From the NCBI GenBank assembly GCA_046758465.1, contig JBHIAG010000001.1, positions 1-59,734 of the forward strand: 59,734 nucleotides of DNA, written 5' to 3'. Positions within the stretch are counted from its first letter, which is position 1, and each line of letters starts with the position of its first letter. A model generated the notes under the pieces. That model was not told the origin of the DNA, ran no database searches, and was given only the letters and a program-made list of their open reading frames with translations. Positions 4,247 through 47,980 of the stretch are shown here, piece by piece. A program made the position numbers and the translations under genes. This DNA comes from Terriglobia bacterium (GTDB lineage Bacteria > Acidobacteriota > Terriglobia > Acidiferrales > 2-02-FULL-67-57).

Positions 4247-6337
4247 ATGGCAGCGGCAACCTCCCGTGCACGTGTAATTGGTCTGGGGGTGGTTGCCTTT
4301 CTCTGGCTCGGGCTCATCCTCACCCGCCTGGTTGAACTGCAAGTCCACCGCCACGGTGAGTTCGCCGGGCGCGCCGAGCGCCAGCAGCAACGCTCCACCA
4401 CCGTCACTCCCCGCCGCGGCAGCCTCTACGACCGCAACGGCCGCGAACTCGCCATCACCATTTCCGTCGAGTCGGCTTTTGCCGTGCCCGCTGAAGTCTC
4501 CGACCCCGACCTCGCCGCGCGCTTGCTGGCCCCGGTCGTCGGCCAGCCCGCCGAGCAGATTGTCGCCCGCCTGCGCCGCCCCCGCTCCTTCGCCTGGATT
4601 GCCCGCAAGCTCGACGCCCACCAGGTCGAGCGCATCCGGGCCCTACAACTCAAAGGGATTTACTTCCAGCGAGAAAACAAACGCTTCTATCCCAAGCGCG
4701 AACTGGCCGCCCACGTCCTCGGCTTTGTCGGCTTGGATGGGAACGGCCTGGCTGGCATCGAGTACAAGCTCGACCACGAAATTCGCGGGCCACCGGGCCG
4801 CCTGCTCATCTTCACCGACGGCCGCCGCCGCTGGCTCCACCGCATGCAGAACCCTCCGGGCGAAGGTGCCAGCGTCGTCCTGACCCTGGACGAAACCATC
4901 CAGTTCATCGCTGAACGCGAGCTGGCGGCGGCCATCGCCCGCACCCGTGCCCGTTCAGGCACCATCATCGTAGCCGACCCGCATACCGGTGAAATTCTGG
5001 CGCTCGCCAACTGGCCAAGCTTCAATCCCAACGCGCCCACCGAAGTCTCCCCGACCTACCACCTCAACCGCGCCGTCAGCCTGGTGTTTGAACCGGGTTC
5101 GACCTTCAAGGTCGTCACCGTGGCGGCGGCGCTCGAAGAGGGTCTCACTCGCCCCGAGGAGCTGATCGACTGCCAGCAGGGCGGCATCGTACTCGCCGGC
5201 CACCTCATCCGCGACCACAAACCCTTTGGCTGGCTCACCGTGCGCGAAATCATCCAGGAGTCGAGCGACGTCGGCTCCATCAAGCTCGGCCTGCGCCTCG
5301 GTAAACAGAGGCTCTACAAGCACATCCGCCGCTGGGGCTTCGGCCAGCCGACCGGCGTGAGCCTGCCGGCGGAAAGTGCTGGCATCGTGCACACACCAAG
5401 CAACTGGTCACGGATTTCCATCGGCGCGATTCCGATGGGGCAGGAGATCGCCGTCACGCCCCTGCAACTCGTGGCCGCCTTTTCGGCCATCGCCAACGGC
5501 GGTGAGTGGGTGGCGCCACGCATCGTAGGCGAGGTCATTCCCTTTGGCGCCACGGCCGGAGCCGCTCTGCGGCCGCCCGCGCCGCGCCGCCGCATCATCA
5601 GCCCGCAAACGGCTAACCATCTCCGCGCCATACTGCGCGCGGTGGTCGTCAGCGGCACCGGTGTGCTGGCCCAGTCCAATGGCTATACCGCCGCCGGCAA
5701 AACTGGAACCGCACAAAAAATTGACAAGACCGGAACCTACTCCCCCACCGAATTCGTCGCCTCCTTCATCGGCTTCGCGCCTGCCCGCAAGCCCGCCATC
5801 ACGGTTCTGGTTGTGCTCGATTCACCCCTCGGCCGCTACTACGGCGGGGAAGTGGCGGCGCCCGTCTTCAAGAACATCGTCGAGCAGGTTCTGGCCCACC
5901 GGAACGTGCCGCCTGACCTGCCTGTCTTGCCCCAACCGTCCCGGTTGCGGATCGAGCGCGCTGCCGTCAGGGATTTTTCTCCCGCGCCACGCCCCCCTTC
6001 GCGCTGGACATATACCGCAGCCAACTCAGACCACGCTTTTTCGACTCCCAGTAAGTGGCTCCGACGGGCTGGCCGCGGCGTCTCCGGCGGAACCCGCAGC
6101 CGGGTGATTCTGGCAGCAGGCGAAAGCGTTACCGTGCCGAACTTCCTGGGCAAATCGCTGCGGGCCGTGGTCGAGGAAGGCGCGCGGGTAGGCCTGGAGG
6201 TGGTGCTGGTGGGCAGCGGCGTTGCAAGCCAACAATTTCCGCCTCCCGGAACCCGCCTGCCCCGGCAGAGCAAGGTGCGGGTGGAATTTCGCCGGGCGCT
6301 GTCCCGAAGCTTCGGGACGCCGGCCCGCACTATGTAG
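4247..6337 (+). CDS. ftsI: peptidoglycan D,D-transpeptidase FtsI (class B PBP) with C-terminal PASTA-like domain
   Basis: N-terminal TM segment and PBP dimerisation region. Transpeptidase motifs STFK (EPGSTFKV), SSD and KTGT (AAGKTGTAQK). The C-terminal VTVPNFLGKSLRAVVEEGARVGLEVVLVGSGVASQQFPPPGTRL is PASTA-like. Confidence 0.93.
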   Translation: MAAATSRARVIGLGVVAFLWLGLILTRLVELQVHRHGEFAGRAERQQQRSTTVTPRRGSLYDRNGRELAITISVESAFAVPAEVSDPDLAARLLAPVVGQPAEQIVARLRRPRSFAWIARKLDAHQVERIRALQLKGIYFQRENKRFYPKRELAAHVLGFVGLDGNGLAGIEYKLDHEIRGPPGRLLIFTDGRRRWLHRMQNPPGEGASVVLTLDETIQFIAERELAAAIARTRARSGTIIVADPHTGEILALANWPSFNPNAPTEVSPTYHLNRAVSLVFEPGSTFKVVTVAAALEEGLTRPEELIDCQQGGIVLAGHLIRDHKPFGWLTVREIIQESSDVGSIKLGLRLGKQRLYKHIRRWGFGQPTGVSLPAESAGIVHTPSNWSRISIGAIPMGQEIAVTPLQLVAAFSAIANGGEWVAPRIVGEVIPFGATAGAALRPPAPRRRIISPQTANHLRAILRAVVVSGTGVLAQSNGYTAAGKTGTAQKIDKTGTYSPTEFVASFIGFAPARKPAITVLVVLDSPLGRYYGGEVAAPVFKNIVEQVLAHRNVPPDLPVLPQPSRLRIERAAVRDFSPAPRPPSRWTYTAANSDHAFSTPSKWLRRAGRGVSGGTRSRVILAAGESVTVPNFLGKSLRAVVEEGARVGLEVVLVGSGVASQQFPPPGTRLPRQSKVRVEFRRALSRSFGTPARTM

Positions 6338-6389
6338 CCACACGGTCCCCATGAGATGCAAAGCAGCTACAATGAAGGAAGCATGCACG

Positions 6390-7916
6390 ATGCGCTTGCA
6401 TGAAATTCTCGACGGTATCGAGTTCGCCTCAACCCGTGGACCTGCCGAAGTTGAGATTGCCGCCGTCCGCTACGACTCCCGCGCTGTCAATCCTGGCGAC
6501 CTGTTTGTCGCCATCCGCGGTGAGCAGGCCGATGGCGACGACTATGTCGCGAGCGCCCTCACTCGCGGCGCCCTCGCCATTGTTAGCGAGCAGCCCGCGC
6601 CGGCCCCCTTCAACCGCACTTGGGTTCAGGTTCCTTCCGCCCGCCGCACCCTGGCGGTGGCCGCTGCCAACTTCTACCGCCACCCCGCGCGCGGCCTCAA
6701 GCTCATTGGCGTCACGGGAACCAATGGGAAGACCACCACTACCTATCTGCTCGAATCCATCCTCCGCACCGCCGGCCACCCCACCGGCCTGATCGGCACC
6801 GTCGAATATCGCTCGCAAGTGGGCCAGAAGGGCTGTATGGAACCCGCCCACCACACTACCCCCGAATCGCTCGACCTCCAGGCCCGGCTGGCCGAGTGGC
6901 GTGATGGCGGCGTTAGCTGGGGCGCGATGGAGGTTTCCTCCCACGGCCTGGCTCTCGACCGGGTCTATGCCTTGCCCTTCGCTGCCGCCGTCTTCACCAA
7001 CCTCGCCCGCGACCACCTCGACTTCCATGGCGATTTCCAAAACTATTTTGAAGCCAAGCAGCGGCTGTTTTTGGGTCACGGCGCGCCCCCGCCGCCCGTG
7101 GTCGCGCTCAACTCCGACGACCCCTACGGCCAGCGCCTGCGCGCTCGCTGCCGCGGTCGCGTCATGCTGCTGTACGGGAGCGGTGAGGGCGCCCAGGTGA
7201 CCGCCCGGGAGATATCGGCTGCCGCCAGTGGGCTCAGCTTTATCCTCTCGACCCCCGTCGGGTCGGCCAAAGTTCGTTCACCGCTGGTGGGCTGGCCGAA
7301 CCTCTCGAACATCCTCGCCGCCGCCGCCGCCACCCTGGCCCTCGACTTCCCCCTGGACACGGTTGTTGCCGGCATCGAGGCGCTCACCCATGTGCCCGGG
7401 CGCTTCGAACGCATTGAAGCCGGCCAACCCTTTACCGTGGTGGTCGATTTTGCCCACACCGACCTGGCGTTTGAAACCCTGCTCCAGACTGCCCGCGAAC
7501 TCACCCGCGGCCGCGTCCTCATTGTCTTTGGCTGCGGCGGCGACCGCGACCGCACCAAGCGCCCCGTGATGGGCGAAATCGCCGCCCGCCACGCCGACAC
7601 CGTCATCCTCACCACCGACAACCCCCGCTCGGAAGACCCGGTGCGCATCTTGAACGACATACTCGTCGGGGTCCAGAAAGCAGGTGCGAACTACGAAGTC
7701 GTCACCGACCGCGCGCAGGCCTTTGCCCGCGCCTTTGAACTCGCGCGCGCCGGCGACCTGGTGCTGCTGGCCGGCAAAGGCCACCAGCGCGAGCAAATCT
7801 TCCGCGACCACGTCGAGCCCTGGAATGAGCGAGAAAGCGCCCGGGCCGTGCTTCGCCGGATGGGCTTTTCGCAGCGCGTGTCGCAGTTCCGCCCGGCAGC
7901 GCTACGGGGGCATTAG
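6390..7916 (+). CDS. murE: UDP-N-acetylmuramoyl-L-alanyl-D-glutamate--2,6-diaminopimelate ligase
   Basis: Motifs GVTGTNGKTTTTYL and DNPRSEDP. A GAAGGAAG RBS lies upstream of ATG 6390. Alternative in-frame starts are at 6351 and 6372. Confidence 0.92.
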   Translation: MRLHEILDGIEFASTRGPAEVEIAAVRYDSRAVNPGDLFVAIRGEQADGDDYVASALTRGALAIVSEQPAPAPFNRTWVQVPSARRTLAVAAANFYRHPARGLKLIGVTGTNGKTTTTYLLESILRTAGHPTGLIGTVEYRSQVGQKGCMEPAHHTTPESLDLQARLAEWRDGGVSWGAMEVSSHGLALDRVYALPFAAAVFTNLARDHLDFHGDFQNYFEAKQRLFLGHGAPPPPVVALNSDDPYGQRLRARCRGRVMLLYGSGEGAQVTAREISAAASGLSFILSTPVGSAKVRSPLVGWPNLSNILAAAAATLALDFPLDTVVAGIEALTHVPGRFERIEAGQPFTVVVDFAHTDLAFETLLQTARELTRGRVLIVFGCGGDRDRTKRPVMGEIAARHADTVILTTDNPRSEDPVRILNDILVGVQKAGANYEVVTDRAQAFARAFELARAGDLVLLAGKGHQREQIFRDHVEPWNERESARAVLRRMGFSQRVSQFRPAALRGH

Positions 7917-36303: not shown

Positions 36304-37488
36304 CTACCGCGAGCGCACTCTGCCCGATGGCACGGCGCCCAGTTTTTCCGCGACTTCCACGGCGAAGGGCTTGCTGGCCTCGCCAAAGTAGACCGACAGG
36401 TGCGGATAGGGAATTTCGATGCCGCGGGCATCAAAGGCGTTCTTGATGCGCCGGCGCAGTTCGCGGCCCACCGCCCACTGCTGGATGGGCGCAGTCTTAA
36501 TGCGGGCTTTGATGACCACAGCCGAGTCGGCGAAGTCATCCACGCCGAGAATTTCCAGGGGTTCGAGAATCTTGTCGGCAAAGGCGGGGTCAGCCTGCAG
36601 TTCCGCGCCGACCTCTTTCACCACTTCCATCACGCGGTCCACGTTTTCCTTGTAGGCTACGCCTAGGTCGATTACGTAGTAGGAAAAATCTTTGGTCATA
36701 TTCGACAGTTCATTGATGGCTCCGTTGGGGAACACGTGCACCGTGCCGTCCAAGCCGCGGAGCACAATCGTGCGCAGGCGAATCGCTTCCACCAGCCCGC
36801 CCTTGCCGTTGATGATGGCCACGTCGCCGACCCGCACTTGGTCTTCCGCGATTAGAAACAAGCCGGAGATGACGTCGCGCACCAGATTCTGCGCCCCGAA
36901 GCCCACGGCGAGACCAGCGATGCCAGCGCCGGTGAGGATGGGCGTGATGTCCACGCCCAGTTCGCGCAGGACGATCAAAACCGCAATGCTCATGGTCAAA
37001 AGGGTGGTGAGCATGCGGAGCAGGCGGGTGATGGTCTCGGTGCGCTTCCGCCGTTCCGTGAGTTCGGCCAGCGGGCCCTTTCGCGGAACAACAAAGATCG
37101 GCAGCCGGGCGATGAGGAGGTGGAGTGTGCGACTCAGGACGAACGCCCCACCCAGCACGAACAGGATGCGAACTCCGGGCCCCGCGAGCCAGCCCGCCAC
37201 TTGCTCCCAGGTCAGTTGCGGGAAGCCGCCGATGCCGAGGCTGCGCAAGATGATGAAGACAGCAGCGATACTGGAGACGATTGCAATGGTCCGGCGAACA
37301 AACCGGGCCAACTGCCCGGCCCAGCGTTCAATTTCTTCGAAGTGCTCACGGTCTTTCTCTTCCATTCGCCGGGCCAGCCGCCGGATAGCACGTGTGGCGA
37401 GCCACAGGCCTACCAACGTCAGCCCCAGCACGCCCACCACGGCGATCAATGTGGGCAGCAATGCTTTCAGTGTGATTCCTTCCGGCAT
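36304..37488 (-). CDS. MscS-family mechanosensitive channel
   Basis: N-terminal TM helices and the conserved MscS beta-domain (LFLIAEDQVRVGDVAIINGKGGLVEAIRLRTIVLRGLDGTVHVFPNG). Confidence 0.9.
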   Translation of the reverse strand: MPEGITLKALLPTLIAVVGVLGLTLVGLWLATRAIRRLARRMEEKDREHFEEIERWAGQLARFVRRTIAIVSSIAAVFIILRSLGIGGFPQLTWEQVAGWLAGPGVRILFVLGGAFVLSRTLHLLIARLPIFVVPRKGPLAELTERRKRTETITRLLRMLTTLLTMSIAVLIVLRELGVDITPILTGAGIAGLAVGFGAQNLVRDVISGLFLIAEDQVRVGDVAIINGKGGLVEAIRLRTIVLRGLDGTVHVFPNGAINELSNMTKDFSYYVIDLGVAYKENVDRVMEVVKEVGAELQADPAFADKILEPLEILGVDDFADSAVVIKARIKTAPIQQWAVGRELRRRIKNAFDARGIEIPYPHLSVYFGEASKPFAVEVAEKLGAVPSGRVRSR

Positions 37489-37530: not shown

Positions 37531-37860
37531 CTAGTCGCAGCGACTCCTGATTGCCAGCCCAGGAGCCGCGGCGAATAGCAGCCCGTAGTGCAGGTAGCCT
37601 CGCAGCGATGCAGGGAGTTTTTCGTTCACCGCCATCGTAAAAGCGATGACGTCGTGGCGGACCTCCTTCTCGATCTCGGCCACGCGCTGGGGCGAAGGCA
37701 CTTCCGCTGTGCTGCGCAGCGTGGTGGCCGCTTCCTTCGGAATTTGGCCGCAGTCGCCCAGGGCCTCGCAGGTGGCCAGCTCGACTTCAAGCCACTTCCC
37801 TAGCTTGTTCTCTTCCGTCCAGATCCGCCCCATCTGGGGCCGGGTGTAGCGCGGGATCAC
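37531..37860 (-). pseudogene. purB: 5' fragment (about 94 codons) of adenylosuccinate lyase
   Basis: MIPRYTRPQMGRIWTEENKLGKWLEVELA...VRHDVIAFT...LHYGL matches the PurB N-terminus. The match stops at the point where PurB normally continues TS(S/T)D. The frame then reads LFAAAPGLAIRSRCD-stop, and about 340 codons are missing. Confidence 0.8.
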
Positions 37861-40636: not shown

Positions 40637-41809
40637 CTACCCTTGTTGACTGTCAGAGATGGAGGTGGCACGCTGGCCAAGCAGGTTCAGCTTGTACGTC
40701 CGGATCACGGCGGGTGGAATCTGCTGTCCAGAGGGGGTAAAAAAGGTCAGCGCATTCTCGGGACACTGGACGATGCACGCCCCACACTGCACGCAGGCAT
40801 CTGGCTCTGCGATGATCGCCTTCTGGCACGTGGTATCGATGACATAACAGTTCTTAGGGCAAACCTCCCAACACATGGCCCGGCCGCGGCAGGCTTCCTT
40901 GTCAAGTTCCACGCGGAGAAGGCGGTCCTCATGCAATCCACTCTTGTATAGTGGCGTACTGCCGGCCAAGTCCATGCTGGTGAGCAGGGCGAGGAAAAGC
41001 GAAGCCAGCGACCACCCCACTAGGCCTTTCAGGTCCCAGGTTCCGTGCACAAAGGCGTAGCCCCACAGACCCACCACGAACAACACCCAGACCATTAGAC
41101 TCCTTCTGATTCTGGGATCGAAGAAGACAAGGTAGCGCGTCCAGCCCGGCTGTAGCTGTTTGGTCGGTTCGACTCTTCCAGCAAACCAGGGGAATAAAGC
41201 GTACACGCCCAAGGTCAGTGTCCACGCCATAGCAAGGAAAGGGAGTACCAGGTGACGCCAACCGATCGCGAGAACTGTTCCCCCGACAACTGTGATGGGG
41301 AAGGCCCAGGCGAGGGCCATCTCGAGTCGGTCAAGAAGCGGGAAGCGAACCTGTCGCATGGCTTCAGTCTTGCGGCCACTAGCGAGATAGGCAGGAAGAT
41401 CACGGGCGTACACTGGTCCGAAGACAACGTGCCAGCCGGTGCGCTGCTCGACCAGCTTGCGCTCTACCCCCGTGGCGCTCAACTGGGGCAGGACCAGGCG
41501 GCGGTGGTCGACAAGTTCGCCAATCCCGCTCGTGCGCAAGATGGAGATCACTTGGTGCGCAGTGAAGTAGCCGCCCGCCGCGCTGCACCAGACGTTGATG
41601 CCACGCGTCGAGGCTACCAGCAGGTAAGCATCCTCCCCGCGCAATGCCCGCAACACCCGCCGCACAGTCAGCTCATAGTTGCATGTGGCCAACACCGGGG
41701 CCTTCCGTCCAGGGTTGCCAACCCGGATCAGGCGTGGTTCCGTGGGCCAAGGGAGGACGCGTAGACAAGCCTCAAGCACGCCGAGGAGGAAGTCACGCAA
41801 CCGCCGCAT
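40637..41809 (-). CDS. HgcA-family corrinoid-domain membrane protein fused to an HgcB-like 2x[4Fe-4S] ferredoxin domain
   Basis: STRGINVWCSAAGGYF aligns with the HgcA cap-helix motif N(V/I)WCA(A/G)GK, with the Cys kept. Flanking PVLATCNYELT and LVLPQLSATGV..VVFGPVYARDLPAYL resemble HgcA as I remember it. About 4-5 TM helices follow. The C-terminus reads CRGRAMCWEVCP ... CVQCGACIVQCP. Confidence 0.7.
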   Translation of the reverse strand: MRRLRDFLLGVLEACLRVLPWPTEPRLIRVGNPGRKAPVLATCNYELTVRRVLRALRGEDAYLLVASTRGINVWCSAAGGYFTAHQVISILRTSGIGELVDHRRLVLPQLSATGVERKLVEQRTGWHVVFGPVYARDLPAYLASGRKTEAMRQVRFPLLDRLEMALAWAFPITVVGGTVLAIGWRHLVLPFLAMAWTLTLGVYALFPWFAGRVEPTKQLQPGWTRYLVFFDPRIRRSLMVWVLFVVGLWGYAFVHGTWDLKGLVGWSLASLFLALLTSMDLAGSTPLYKSGLHEDRLLRVELDKEACRGRAMCWEVCPKNCYVIDTTCQKAIIAEPDACVQCGACIVQCPENALTFFTPSGQQIPPAVIRTYKLNLLGQRATSISDSQQG

Positions 41810-42461
41810 CGCGTTCCTCTCGCTTCTTCGCTTGCAGCAAAATGAAGTCAGCCGGGCAATTGCTTTCTCGACTGACAGCGACGAACCGGGCTTCGGCAAC
41901 TTTTGCGGCCAGACCCCGCACGGGCCTGGTGCTCGTTTGTGTCAGGACATAGGTAAAGACGGCCAGTGGCAGCCGCACCAAGCTGTGGAGGGCGCGCCGA
42001 GCAAGCGTCGGAGGGCGCACCTCGTCGGCAACGATTAGCTGCCCACCAGGCCGCAGTAGACGGTGGCACTGGCGCAATGCTTCTCGCTGCTCACCTTCAC
42101 TTAGTTCACTGAATAGCAAAACGCTGGTAATCGTGTGGAATGACTCGGCTTGGAACTGGTCGATCAATTCCACCGCGCTGGTTCGCACCCAGCGAACGGC
42201 GACGCGGGGCGGGATTTTCTGCCGGGCGAGGTCGAGCATGTCCTGCGACAGATCGACCCCGGTGACGTGGAGGCCGCGTCGGGCTAGGCGCAGAGCCACA
42301 TTGCCAGTACCGCAGCCCAGGTCGAGTACGTCTGGGCCACGAGCAAGCTGTGCCACTCGGTCGTAGACCCTCTCGATGTGGCCGAAAGAAAGGAGCCGGA
42401 TGCCGAAGTCGTACCGATGGGGTGCGGACTCCAGCAAGCGCATCCAAACATACGTGCTCAC
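41793..42461 (-). CDS. class I SAM-dependent methyltransferase
   Basis: Motif I VLDLGCGTGNVA and motif post-I VTGVDLS, with LLRPGGQLIV downstream. Its stop lies 17 nt inside the downstream hgcAB-like ORF. Confidence 0.85.
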   Translation of the reverse strand: MSTYVWMRLLESAPHRYDFGIRLLSFGHIERVYDRVAQLARGPDVLDLGCGTGNVALRLARRGLHVTGVDLSQDMLDLARQKIPPRVAVRWVRTSAVELIDQFQAESFHTITSVLLFSELSEGEQREALRQCHRLLRPGGQLIVADEVRPPTLARRALHSLVRLPLAVFTYVLTQTSTRPVRGLAAKVAEARFVAVSRESNCPADFILLQAKKREERDAAVA

Positions 42462-44881: not shown

Positions 44882-47800
44882 TCAATGAGCTGAGATTGTA
44901 TCCAAATCCAACCGCTTCAACTCTTTATTAATGCGCGGCATCTCCTTTTGGAGTATTCCCTCTAATGCGTCCAGTCGAACTTTCAACACAGCAGAGAGTT
45001 TTTCAAACACTTGTATATATCCTTTAGTCGGCGGTCCGTCTCCATGTTCAAGATGTGAACGCAGGCCTGTGAGCCGGTCGTTCAGCTTGATAGGGAACGC
45101 AATTTTATCTTTGGGGCTCTGATTCTTTACCTGGTATAATTCTTTTTCGACCGCGCTGATCCCTTCGAGGAAATCTTCTGCCGTTTTTCGTAACTTCCGA
45201 TCGCTAGTCTTACTCAACCGGTCTTCTACTTGAGCTCTCAGGTTCCGAATGAGAATGACTCCTTCGTTGGCAGCACTTTCACTATCTCTGATCTTAACGG
45301 CAAGATCGAACTGGGCCTTTAAATCCGCACCTGTCACATCCGTTAACCTCGGATCTTTCTTGACGTTGAACCACCGCTCTTGCTCCTTACCATCCACAAC
45401 GAGCCTTGCCTGGTAGCGACCGGGAGGAGCCCAGGGACCTCTTGTCGGATCTCCTCCCTCAAGGACAATATTCGGGACAACAGTCGCACCCGCATACCGG
45501 AGGTCCCAGGACAGGCGATGCATGCCCTCTTCCATGACGATCCCGTTTTCGAGAGTACGTACTTTTCGACCATCGGCATCTCGTATTTCCACAGAGACAT
45601 TGTGGTTCGGTTCCTTCACGTAATAGTCAACAACAGCAGGAACAGCACGCCGGATTGCATCGGCCGGCTTAAAAAGGTGAAATTCAGCACTCATAATTTC
45701 AGGATTGAGCTGCCGCAGCGTTTCAATATCATCCAATACCCAGAAAGACCGGCCATGGGTCGAGATAACCAGATCTTGCTGCTGAATCTCGATTCCTGTC
45801 ACGGGAACGTCGGGCAGATTCATGGAGAGGCTTCGCCAGGTCTCCCCGTCATTGAACGACACGTATACGCCGTGCTCGGTGCCAGCATAGAGCAGCCCCT
45901 GACGCCTGGGATCTTCCCGGACAGCATACGCAAAGTCGTCGTCCCGGATTCCGTCTATGATTCTAGTCCAGGTTTCACCATAATGATCTGATTTCCATAA
46001 ATAGGGTGCACGGTCGCCCATTTCGTACCGTCTCGCCGCCACATACGCCGTTCCTGGCTGATGGGGCGAAGACTCGATGAGGCTCACCCGGGTATGTTTC
46101 GGCATGTCTGGAGGGGTAACGTTTTTCCAGTCGCGCCCGCCGTTACGAGTGAGATAGACAAGCCCGTCATCAGAGCCTGTCCAGATGGTATTCACATCGT
46201 GAGGCGAAGGTGCAATCGTATAAATTGTAGCGTAGATCTCGGGACCGTCCTGATCTTTAACAATGGGTCCACCGGAATCGCCGAGGGTTGCCGGCTCTGC
46301 TCTGGTAAGATCGGGGCTGATCTTTACCCAAGTCTCACCCTCGTCTGTCGTACGCCAAAGATGCTGTGAGCCAACAAACAACATGTTAGGATCGATAGGA
46401 GAGAAAACGATAGGATAAGTCCAGTTCCAGCGCTCAGGCATATCCCTGGCGGGCTCGCCCATCACAATCCGGGGATAGGGCTGGATATCTCTCGACAACC
46501 CGGTCTTGCGGTCGTATCGTGTCAGCGTGTTCGTTGCACCGGCGTAAAAGATGTCTGTTTTGTTCGGATGTGGAGCGATATATCCACTCTCACCGCCGCC
46601 TACCGCGTACATCCATTCTCCGCTTGGTCCCCGTGGATTCCGAAGGTGACCGCCATCGGATGGCACACAGACAGTCGAATTGTCTTGCTGGGCACCGCAC
46701 ACGTGGTATGGGAAGTCTTTTGTGGTTGCGAGCCGATAAATCTGGGCTGTTGGGTATCTCATGTGCGTCCAGGTTTTTCCCCCGTTCACGGAAACGACCC
46801 CACCGCCGTCGTTTCCATTAATCATCCGAGAGGGGTTGTTTGGATCGATCCACAAGTCGTGGTGATCGGAGTGGGTTTCAGGAAGTCGAACGAAAGTCTG
46901 TCCTCCATCCGTAGATTTGAGCAAGCGAAAGTTGAGGACGTAGATAGTCTCCCGGTCTGCGGGATCCGCCTGGATGCGCTGAAAGTAGAAAGCTCGCTGC
47001 CATAGATCCCTGTGATTGTTGATGAGGATCCATGTTTCTCCGCCGTCGTCTGACCGATATAGGCCACCCGTTTCCGCCTCGACATTTGCGTAGACTCTCT
47101 TAGAGTCGGCACCAGATACGGTTACCGTGATCTTACCGAGGACACCCTGAGGAAAGCCCGGATTCCGGGTCAGCTCACGCCAGGTCTCTCCGCCATCCGT
47201 GGACTTGAAGATCCCGGAGCCTTTACCGCCGCTCCAGAGGATCCACGGCCTGCGATAGACTTCCCAGAGAGTCGTGTACATCACATCGGGATCGTTGGGA
47301 TCAAGCACGAGATCGATGGCACCGGTTTGCTCGTTTCTGTGCAGGATTTTTTCCCAGGTGCGCCCTCCGTCCAGAGTTCGAAATACTCCTCTTTCGGGAT
47401 TCTGGCCAAACGGATGCCCCACAGCCGCCACATAGACCCGATCCGGGTCTGTGGGATGGATTCGGATCCGGCTGATCACTTGGGTTTGTTCGAGTCCTAA
47501 GTACTCCCAATTCTGTCCTCCATCTGTCGAGCGATAAACGCCATCGCCTTGCAGCACGTTCTGGCGAAGCTGCGCTTCACCCATGCCCAAGTAGACAACA
47601 TCAGGATTCGATTTGGCGACTGCCACCGCACCCACGGATGAGCTCTTAATCTGTCCGTCAGTGATAGGATACCAGTTCATGCCTCCATCCATCGTCTTCC
47701 ACAAACCACCACCGGTTGCTCCGAAGTAGTACTCGTAAGGGCGGTCTGTATGGCCTGCCACAGCAATTGATCGCCCTCCACGCTTAGGGCCGATGTTTCT

Positions 47801-47980
47801 CCAACGCAATGGAGGAAGAAGTATGTCATTTTGGGCCGACGAATGAGCGTGTTTTGCCAGGATGATGGAAGGAACGGCCAAGTCGATTATAAGCAAAAGG
47901 GCAACAAGGATGCCGGCACGTCTATAGCTGTTGGAAAGGAATCTGTACAGCGGTAAACCAAGCAATCTGTGGCAACTCAT
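44882..47980 (-). CDS. sortilin/VPS10-type BNR (Asp-box) repeat exoprotein, 1032 aa
   Basis: N-terminal hydrophobic signal/anchor and repeated S-x-D-x-G-x-T-W Asp-boxes (STDGGQNW, TLDGGRTW, STDGGETW, SDDGGETW, STDGGQTF and others). Collinear paralogue of 55778..58969. Confidence 0.85.
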   Translation of the reverse strand: MSCHRLLGLPLYRFLSNSYRRAGILVALLLIIDLAVPSIILAKHAHSSAQNDILLPPLRWRNIGPKRGGRSIAVAGHTDRPYEYYFGATGGGLWKTMDGGMNWYPITDGQIKSSSVGAVAVAKSNPDVVYLGMGEAQLRQNVLQGDGVYRSTDGGQNWEYLGLEQTQVISRIRIHPTDPDRVYVAAVGHPFGQNPERGVFRTLDGGRTWEKILHRNEQTGAIDLVLDPNDPDVMYTTLWEVYRRPWILWSGGKGSGIFKSTDGGETWRELTRNPGFPQGVLGKITVTVSGADSKRVYANVEAETGGLYRSDDGGETWILINNHRDLWQRAFYFQRIQADPADRETIYVLNFRLLKSTDGGQTFVRLPETHSDHHDLWIDPNNPSRMINGNDGGGVVSVNGGKTWTHMRYPTAQIYRLATTKDFPYHVCGAQQDNSTVCVPSDGGHLRNPRGPSGEWMYAVGGGESGYIAPHPNKTDIFYAGATNTLTRYDRKTGLSRDIQPYPRIVMGEPARDMPERWNWTYPIVFSPIDPNMLFVGSQHLWRTTDEGETWVKISPDLTRAEPATLGDSGGPIVKDQDGPEIYATIYTIAPSPHDVNTIWTGSDDGLVYLTRNGGRDWKNVTPPDMPKHTRVSLIESSPHQPGTAYVAARRYEMGDRAPYLWKSDHYGETWTRIIDGIRDDDFAYAVREDPRRQGLLYAGTEHGVYVSFNDGETWRSLSMNLPDVPVTGIEIQQQDLVISTHGRSFWVLDDIETLRQLNPEIMSAEFHLFKPADAIRRAVPAVVDYYVKEPNHNVSVEIRDADGRKVRTLENGIVMEEGMHRLSWDLRYAGATVVPNIVLEGGDPTRGPWAPPGRYQARLVVDGKEQERWFNVKKDPRLTDVTGADLKAQFDLAVKIRDSESAANEGVILIRNLRAQVEDRLSKTSDRKLRKTAEDFLEGISAVEKELYQVKNQSPKDKIAFPIKLNDRLTGLRSHLEHGDGPPTKGYIQVFEKLSAVLKVRLDALEGILQKEMPRINKELKRLDLDTISAH

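Follow-up and report, generated by a model that had tools for sequence, protein, structure and literature searches.

The cpaM/hgcAB-like locus of a Terriglobia bacterium

The contig JBHIAG010000001.1 of a Terriglobia bacterium (assembly GCA_046758465.1, Acidobacteriota), of which a stretch of 59,734 nucleotides (nt) was analyzed and is called the window here, harbors on its reverse strand two overlapping genes that form a two-gene operon. The upstream gene, cpaM (41793..42461), starts with GTG and encodes a class I S-adenosylmethionine (SAM)-dependent methyltransferase of 222 amino acids (aa), as given by the open reading frame (ORF) call and the NCBIfam model NF043040. The downstream gene (40637..41809, stop codon 40637-40639) encodes an HgcAB-like fusion protein of 390 aa, assigned by NF043039, and its ATG (41807-41809) sits within a longer ORF, 40637..41899(-). 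Between the stop codon of cpaM (TGA, 41793-41795) and the fusion start there is an overlap of 17 nt (41793..41809(-)); the junction reads GATGCGGCGGTTGCG and then TGA, with the fusion ATG 14 nt ahead of the cpaM TGA, and a GAGG-type Shine-Dalgarno sequence is located within the 3' end of cpaM. As judged from its sequence, the overlap represents a translational-coupling junction. The initial annotation, which was made from the DNA letters and the ORF list, had placed the methyltransferase stop 17 nt inside the downstream ORF, and these coordinates are borne out by the ORF calls as well as by the junction sequence. It had also named an assembly error at 41.79-41.81 kb as a possible weakness, which is ruled out, since the identical 17-nt layout (ATGCGnnGGnnGCGTGA) is present in four other, independent assemblies (L001, L002, L004, and L006). 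Most of the loci compared have overlapping stop and start codons, by 17 nt in five loci and by 8 nt or 4 nt (GTGA/ATGA) elsewhere. An Rfam scan of the window gave no match, a cobalamin riboswitch was found neither in the window nor in 11 loci, and between 40300 and 42800 no promoter-like site and one terminator-like match were detected, the latter intragenic and below the shuffle expectation.

The fusion protein is a member of the fused HgcAB family

The 390-aa product had been described at the outset as a protein of three parts, and the CdhD domain, the transmembrane (TM) helices and the Fer4 module are indeed all present in one chain. It matches the equivalog model NF043039 (HgcAB-like fusion protein) with 425.8 bits (cutoff 285, E 1.7e-127; aa 11-354 on model positions 4-349 of 350), the Pfam CdhD model PF03599 with an E-value of 7.7e-15, and Fer4 family models around aa 300-360, which confirms the proposed homology to HgcA and HgcB. 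The suggested search with HgcA and HgcB hidden Markov models (HMMs) gave clear family homology, with scores that do not reach the respective cutoffs: 166.1 bits against 275 for the true HgcA model NF040863, which is matched in the corrinoid domain only, and 48.3 bits against 99 for the HgcB model NF040864. The protein also fails the model for the large subunit of the corrinoid iron-sulfur protein (CFeSP), PRK04165 (79.9 bits, cutoff 306), and full-length AcsC/CdhE with its N-terminal [4Fe-4S] domain and TIM barrel is not matched, the similarity being confined to the C-terminal corrinoid domain. The locus thus belongs to the known “fused HgcAB” paralogue family and not to that of the true mercury methylase.

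According to the portion of the literature available to us, fused HgcAB proteins have been known since 2015 (Podar 2015, PMC4646819) and are treated in work on mercury as a non-methylating paralogue that has to be excluded (Capo 2022, PMC10087281; Lin 2023, PMC10083202). Both genes of the pair have curated NCBIfam models, and the pair is therefore not new. Since the identical protein P0001 is named in GenBank (“MAG: HgcAB-like fusion protein [Terriglobia bacterium]”), the locus is already catalogued, and it is an ordinary, already annotated member of the family. A profile search covering 1.84 billion representatives, with the family representatives clustered at 50% identity, detected 3001 relatives at E<=1e-3 and 487 at E<=1e-30, and many of the latter are soil Acidobacteriota. 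The window protein is about 45-47% identical to the branch of L008-L010, to which marine and thermophilic members are 69-81% identical. In the excerpts of the mercury literature on fused HgcAB we found no discussion of the soil Acidobacteriota/Terriglobia branch. One Acidobacteriota metagenome-assembled genome (MAG) has a broken fusion gene (L011 5986-7162), with two frames that overlap each other (5986-6870 and 6521-7162), which is either a pseudogene or a sequencing frameshift.

Domains and conserved motifs of the fusion protein

The corrinoid-binding Rossmann-like domain (aa 20-139, 41393..41752(-)) has homologues in HgcA and in the C-terminal part of the CFeSP large subunit. A sequence search of the PDB returned CFeSP large subunits as best matches (2h9a, E 7.5e-14) and CFeSP only, as no experimental HgcA structure was found there. 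The AlphaFold2 (AF2) model is confident in this domain, with a predicted local distance difference test (pLDDT) value of about 90, and the top Foldseek match is 9a0b_A, a computed HgcAB model from 2020, followed by CFeSP chains with a root-mean-square deviation of 1.5 A over 126 columns. The domain contains the cap-helix motif G70-INVWCSAAG-G80 (41570..41602(-)), which is present as first quoted (STRGINVWCSAAGGYF) and aligns with GINVWCAAGKG of verified HgcA. For comparison, true HgcA proteins were taken from 120 metagenomic stretches with the canonical cap motif NVWCAAGKG, and those sampled were verified as HgcA (401-449 bits on NF040863) and HgcB (120-122 bits). Cys75, encoded by codon 41585-41587, falls into the same alignment column as the cap-helix Cys of these proteins, which match the window protein column for column here, so that the early assignment of this residue was correct. 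Cys75 is predicted to be the lower axial thiolate ligand of the cobalt. Tryptophan and cysteine of the motif are kept in 143/145 of the family representatives whose cap motif aligns without gaps. Conservation was furthermore analyzed in an alignment of 14 orthologues, eight of them from Acidobacteriota genomes and the rest from six other lineages (a Methanofastidiosia archaeon, Desulfobacteraceae, Deferribacteres, a gammaproteobacterium, Myxococcales, and an actinomycete). All of these keep NVWC without change and have Gly in place of the Lys of “GK”. The part of Capo 2022 (PMC10087281) considered here accepts six HgcA cap-helix strings of the type N(V/I)WC(A/S)(A/G/S)GK. The NVWCSAAGG of the window keeps the Cys, has no GK and lies outside of these six; the deviation noted initially is therefore real, but it is shared across the clade and not a peculiarity of this ORF.

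The membrane domain (40976..41326(-)) consists of four TM helices, located at aa 162-180, 187-205, 238-256, and 260-278 by hydropathy and at aa 158-183, 185-205, 234-255, and 260-278 in the AF2 model (pLDDT 80-93). Of the 4-5 helices that had been expected, the presence of a membrane domain stands and the number has to be fixed at four. Helices 1 and 2 as well as 3 and 4 are connected by short loops, whereas helices 2 and 3 are separated by a 32-residue loop with positive charge (K+R=6), which according to positive-inside analysis gives an N-in/C-in topology; a C-terminal ferredoxin located in the cytoplasm also calls for an even number of helices. The same method yields most often five helices for true HgcA (26/47), and four in 14/47. 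A conserved juxtamembrane motif, D280-LAGSTPLYKSGLHEDRLL-298 (40916..40972(-)), is situated at the cytoplasmic face, with D280, G283, T285, P286, K289, S290, L292, and H293 invariant in the alignment. Its residues D-L-A-G-S-T-P-L-Y-K-S-G-L-H-E-D-R align with N-F-T-G-x-S-T-Y-T-S-L-S-G-V-K-K-E of HgcA, where TM5 follows, whereas in the fusion protein the ferredoxin domain comes next. On the basis of this conservation the motif is a candidate for an acceptor-side element.

The HgcB-like ferredoxin domain (aa 300-356, 40742..40912(-)) is modeled by AF2 with low confidence (pLDDT 31-49), which makes the model unreliable for this part. Its first motif is C307-x5-C313-x3-C317-P (CRGRAMCWEVCP) with Arg in place of the second Cys, and its second motif is canonical, C339-x2-C342-x2-C345-x3-C349-P (CVQCGACIVQCP). 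Both had been recognized in the initial annotation, yet the loss in motif 1 is no local oddity, since all 14 aligned orthologues have C-x-G-x3-C-x2-V-C-P without the second Cys. Across the family the second Cys is kept in 62/87 representatives with complete motif alignments, and where it is lost the position is taken by A, V, T, E, R, K, D, S, or I. The family as a whole thus has mostly a canonical first motif and the loss is clade-specific, and with the replacing residue so variable there is no conserved alternative ligand. The 3+4 Cys pattern predicts either a [3Fe-4S]+[4Fe-4S] pair or a site-differentiated cluster, and the clade-specific loss would fit a 7Fe-type electron-transfer module better than a catalytic open-site cluster.

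The protein ends with a clade-specific tail, P366-PAVIRTYKLNLLGQ-R380 (40670..40714(-)), in which P366, R370, K373, G378, and R380 are invariant and IRxYKLNLLGxR is conserved across the 14 aligned orthologues. There is no Cys after C349, and therefore the tail has no equivalent of Cys73 or of the C-terminal Cys-Cys of HgcB, in agreement with the earlier remark that the vicinal pair is absent. Among metagenomic HgcB sequences 56/67 end in CC. Six distant HgcAB-like members (P0389, P0396, P0399, P0422, P0435, and P0442) have Cys-rich C-terminal tails with CxC, CC, or CxxC, such as ...GCACAAGARS and ...ECPAASSCH, which recall the Hg-binding C-terminus of HgcB and have no counterpart in the window clade.

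CpaM and its pairing with the fusion protein

CpaM matches NF043040 with 256.3 bits (cutoff 180, E 1.9e-76; aa 3-213 on model positions 1-216 of 216) and Pfam Methyltransf_25 with an E-value of 2.6e-23. An alignment of 15 orthologues shows a conserved N-terminal motif, MSTYxxM(R/K)xLESxxxRYDxGI, the SAM motif LDLGCGTG, and FSEL and ADE motifs. The AF2 model (pLDDT 81.7) has the class I fold, and an amphipathic insert helix is located at about aa 153-174. The scores are far below the cutoffs for UbiE/MenG models (70.8 bits, cutoff 158) as well as for ArsM-type models (39.5-47.6 bits, cutoffs 263-510), and the only Cys conserved family-wide is Cys50 inside the GCGTG SAM motif. An ArsM-like role of CpaM is thus ruled out, and as the conserved Cys pairs of ArsM are missing, CpaM is unlikely to bind a soft metal itself. 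A literature search for corrinoid protein-associated methyltransferases yielded no paper discussing CpaM, although the family is recorded in NCBIfam, and the excerpts of the papers on fused HgcAB contain no mention of a methyltransferase partner.

A CpaM orthologue lies directly upstream of the fusion gene on the same strand in 14/14 genome loci, and also in five further loci found by exact-protein look-ups, one of which is Methanococcoides methylutens. Overall the adjacency holds for 20/20 loci from about nine lineages, of which some may be duplicates, since the further loci were reached with a query that is itself among the 14. The upstream neighbours score 156-401 bits on a CpaM HMM. In contrast, the true-hgcA set comprises 112 ORFs from metagenomes, and at none of the 74 with >=700 nt of upstream sequence was a CpaM found upstream (0/74; best methyltransferase nearby <=41 bits). 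The association with a methyltransferase therefore extends well beyond this contig, which had been in question at first. All-vs-all ORF clustering of 15 loci revealed no conserved third gene, so that the conserved unit comprises two genes only, and the contexts of the further loci vary, with ArsP and Metal_resist in L136, a CobQ-like gene in L137, and TetR, rSAM-SPASM, and a sulfatase in L139.

Moreover, the two proteins occur as natural fusions. In 19 of the best 150 family representatives a CpaM domain is N-terminal to the corrinoid domain, and 14 of those 19, i.e., at least 14 protein clusters, are full-length single chains of CpaM, corrinoid domain, TM helices, and ferredoxin with 524-644 aa. 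All six triple fusions tested pass both NCBIfam cutoffs (CpaM 210-266 bits, HgcAB-like 328-381 bits), and such fusions recur across independent ENA, JGI, Logan, and NCBI assemblies, including Ca. Ranarchaeia and Anaerolineae. The pairwise identities of CpaM and of the fusion protein correlate with r=0.94 across 19 loci, and with dN/dS values of 0.10-0.19 for cpaM and 0.12-0.15 for the fusion gene both are under purifying selection.

Several variants of this arrangement were observed. P0434, P0465, and P0502 (463-477 aa) have a hydrophobic N-terminal extension of about 140 residues with several predicted TM helices in place of the fused CpaM, and their cap helix reads NIWCSSLAGH or NVWCSSLAHH. 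In the Methanofastidiosia archaeon one extra methyltransferase gene stands between cpaM and the fusion gene and overlaps the fusion start. Among the true hgcA loci, one metagenomic contig carries an ArsM-like methyltransferase with Cys-rich motifs (L017 8090-8989) that overlaps the hgcA start, which is similar to the proximity of arsM and hgcAB described in the accessible part of an earlier publication (McDaniel 2020).

Surroundings of the gene pair

In the window the pair adjoins a gene for a beta-eliminating lyase of the tryptophanase/tyrosine phenol-lyase type (PF01212, 38974-40440(+)). Such a lyase is also found beside the pair in an actinomycete MAG (L014 3481-4905) and in none of the other loci examined, and the adjacency is probably a coincidence. 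A 109-aa ORF, 37531-37860(-), next to an MscS-type channel gene (36304-37488), resembles the N-terminus of the adenylosuccinate lyase PurB, diverges at the HxGxTSxD region and then stops; it has no Pfam match and may be a truncated gene remnant. Between 44000 and 50000 the G+C content falls from 0.60-0.66 to 0.52-0.55 in a stretch spanning the gene for a BNR/sortilin-like repeat protein of 1032 aa (44882-47980(-)), and this region may have been acquired horizontally.

In a KSB1 bacterium the region just downstream of the pair (L136 7973-11896) encodes an ArsP-type permease, two Metal_resist proteins (PF13801), and an ECF sigma/anti-sigma pair, a single-locus hint of a connection to metals or metalloids. 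Genes for tmRNA are common integration sites, and as one (L012 53-415) ends 89 nt ahead of cpaM in a gammaproteobacterial MAG, this position would fit horizontal spread of the gene pair.

Proposed function and alternative explanations

We propose that the two gene products together make up a single methyltransferase, anchored in the membrane and dependent on SAM and a corrinoid, that acts in three steps; on the basis of sequences and models we regard this as moderately likely. First, the ferredoxin domain, probably of the 7Fe type in this clade, would draw electrons from a cytoplasmic donor and reduce the bound corrinoid to Co(I). Second, CpaM would bind SAM and methylate Co(I), giving methyl-Co(III) with Cys75 as putative lower axial thiolate. 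The reduction would be coupled to this methylation, as in the reductive reactivation of methionine synthase, where an uphill reduction is coupled to SAM-driven methylation. Third, an electrophilic acceptor would receive the methyl group, in the form of a carbanion or radical equivalent, on the cytoplasmic side of the four-helix domain, presumably near the loop D-x-x-G-S-T-P...H-E-D-R that follows TM4. The proposal is based on the obligatory pairing, on the triple fusions, which can be read as Rosetta-stone fusions, and on the analogy to HgcAB: in purified HgcAB the methyl group comes from SAM and a Cys-thiolate-ligated methylcob(III)alamin is formed, and the clusters of HgcB mediate the electrons for reaching Co(I) (Zheng 2024, PMC11588087). 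A transfer from SAM via the corrinoid to a substrate had been suggested from the window alone, and it is now better supported.

Several points weigh against this proposal. We know of no class I methyltransferase that methylates a protein-bound corrinoid, and fusion and synteny fit consecutive pathway steps equally well. Foldseek places CpaM only next to generic class I methyltransferases (MM_2633, CysG/BelI, Coq5, and PmtA), which give no clue to the substrate. Some of the loci also encode one or two further class I methyltransferases (L008 4317-4946 and 6179-6979, L010 2551-3111, and L136 7296-7976), which with 13 bits on the CpaM HMM are distinct from CpaM. Furthermore, true HgcAB needs no separate methyltransferase to obtain its methyl group from SAM (Zheng 2024, PMC11588087), and a Rossmann-fold partner is thus not chemically required.

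The best surviving alternative is that the two proteins catalyze separate consecutive steps, with the corrinoid/ferredoxin protein as a Co(I) reductase, dehalogenase, or demethylase acting on a small hydrophobic substrate and CpaM methylating the product, a lipid, or a quinone directly, without any methyl-cobalt. Fused consecutive enzymes are common, among named proteins CpaM is most closely related to UbiE/MenG/Coq5-type and phospholipid N-methyltransferases with membrane substrates, and at the position of the amphipathic insert helix some triple fusions have a TM-like segment (KD 2.4); moreover, halomethane dehalogenation by HgcAB has been reported in a 2026 preprint (10.64898/2026.04.26.720869). 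However, the Cys-thiolate cap helix, which is tied to methyl-Co(III) chemistry in HgcA (PMC11588087), is near-invariant in this family, CpaM stays far under the UbiE/MenG cutoffs, and the strict 1:1 pairing and the position of the methyltransferase directly N-terminal to the corrinoid domain, via a short linker, suit a donor-carrier pair. We therefore consider separate steps rather unlikely.

That the fused HgcAB is a genuine mercury methylase, for which CpaM would supply the SAM binding and which failed in culture due to poor Hg uptake or expression, is improbable. The conserved cap-helix Cys and NVWC core would agree with it, as would SAM as the donor of true HgcAB (Zheng 2024, PMC11588087) and the Cys-rich tails of the six distant members mentioned above, and in the available part of Podar 2015 (PMC4646819) the absence of methylmercury (MeHg) in Pyrococcus furiosus is not taken as proof of catalytic inability. 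Yet the separation from HgcA is mutual, as the window protein stays at 166 bits on the HgcA equivalog (cutoff 275) and verified HgcA fails the HgcAB-like model (190-206 bits against 285). Besides, NVWCSAAG is outside the motifs accepted for HgcA in the portion of Capo 2022 (PMC10087281) cited above, and HgcB Cys73 and Cys94/95, called crucial by Zheng 2024 (PMC11588087), have no counterpart. As far as the consulted sections of the reports go, neither tested carrier, P. furiosus or M. methylutens, formed MeHg (PMC4646819, PMC5893877), although M. methylutens has an intact cpaM overlapping its fusion gene. This had also been stated in the initial annotation, and it agrees with the same sections of Podar 2015 (PMC4646819), Gilmour 2018 (PMC5893877), and Capo 2022 (PMC10087281). 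Because the HgcB Cys residues are absent and two cultured carriers make no MeHg, the acceptor in this clade is probably not Hg(II), and the locus should not be counted as a mercury methylator.

Equally doubtful is a role of CpaM as a repair factor only, in which another methyl donor would serve catalysis and CpaM with SAM would re-methylate accidentally oxidized Co(II), like the activation domain of MetH. This is suggested by the textbook analogy to MetH reductive reactivation, and if the cluster is, as is probable, of the 3Fe type and of higher potential, the step from Co(II) to Co(I) would be uphill and would need coupling to methylation. However, neither the locus nor the fused proteins have a conserved methyl-donor module besides CpaM, and SAM is the catalytic donor in true HgcAB (PMC11588087). 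Finally, a fortuitous adjacency or a decaying or misassembled relic, of which the frameshifted fusion gene of L011 might be taken as a sign, is effectively refuted by the adjacency in 20/20 loci, the natural triple fusions, the dN/dS values of 0.10-0.19, the co-varying identities (r=0.94), and the same 17-nt junction in four other assemblies.

Comparison with known corrinoid systems

The closest known system is the fused HgcAB itself (NF043039), with members in P. furiosus (Q8U2U9), M. methylutens, and Kosmotoga pacifica, which have the same order of corrinoid domain, TM helices, and ferredoxin. The NVWC..GG cap helix and the IRxFKLNLxGKR tail are common to these proteins and the window protein, as is the three-Cys motif 1 (M. 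methylutens CKGVGFCEEICP, K. pacifica CKGAGFCEQVCP), and all three features are also present in proteins of Aminicenantes and KSB1; M. methylutens has the upstream CpaM as well. The sub-branch of the window differs in its 17-nt instead of 4-nt overlap, and in contrast to the named members the window protein belongs to a large soil Acidobacteriota/Terriglobia branch.

With HgcA and HgcB of Pseudodesulfovibrio mercurii ND132 (NF040863/NF040864) the fusion protein shares the homologous corrinoid domain, the Cys cap helix, the membrane anchor, the juxtamembrane motif (N/D)xxGxST...SG, the two-cluster ferredoxin partner, and plausibly SAM as methyl source. It differs in being one polypeptide with four instead of mostly five TM helices, in lacking the 40-60-residue N-terminal segment of HgcA, in having GG instead of GK in the cap helix, and in the loss of the second Cys of motif 1, of Cys73, and of the C-terminal Cys-Cys of HgcB. 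CpaM is an obligatory partner in the fused family and occurs at 0/74 true hgcA loci, and the fused carriers tested are MeHg-negative according to the report sections cited above.

CFeSP of the Wood-Ljungdahl pathway (AcsC/CdhE large subunit; 2h9a, 4djd) has the same corrinoid fold, with 32% identity over ~126 residues at 1.5 A. Like the proposed system it uses an Fe-S cluster for reaching Co(I), and its corrinoid domain shuttles between methyl donor and acceptor. However, CFeSP is a soluble heterodimer with Thr374 (2h9a) at the position that aligns with Cys75, its donor is methyl-tetrahydrofolate via MeTr instead of SAM, and its acceptor is the Ni centre of acetyl-CoA synthase. The reactivation module of MetH and TsrM resemble the proposed chemistry, as a cobalamin bound to protein is methylated by SAM in the Co(I) state, or as Co(II) plus an electron, with the help of a low-potential electron carrier. 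They differ in their SAM-binding folds, which are unrelated to the class I Rossmann fold of CpaM, in the absence of a membrane domain, and in having His or no protein ligand instead of a Cys thiolate.

Significance for the fused HgcAB family

The significance of these findings applies to the family, and none of it is specific to the window. What is added is the universal and specific pairing with CpaM, the natural triple fusions, the four-helix topology, and the three-Cys motif shared by the clade. Surveys of mercury-methylation potential that are based on hgcA can pick up the HgcAB-like paralogue, and such hits can be excluded by three simple markers, a CpaM gene next to them, the NVWC..GG cap helix, and the KLNLLG tail. 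The strict pairing and the fusions of CpaM, corrinoid domain, and ferredoxin give a concrete, testable model for fused HgcAB, for which the single-chain fusions are handy constructs in biochemistry. Since a position as deep sister of HgcA is discussed for the fused clade, its reaction would also inform about the activity of HgcAB before or besides mercury methylation. Tentatively, the pair may even represent a distinct and widespread class of enzymes, in which a Rossmann-fold SAM methyltransferase loads a Cys-ligated membrane corrinoid for the methylation of an electrophile other than mercury, such as a metal(loid) or a small hydrophobic molecule. If this is true, CpaM would be the first class I methyltransferase with protein-bound Co(I) as methyl acceptor, and the family, which is abundant in soil Acidobacteriota, could be an unrecognized source of methylated compounds outside the classical anoxic Hg-methylating guilds.

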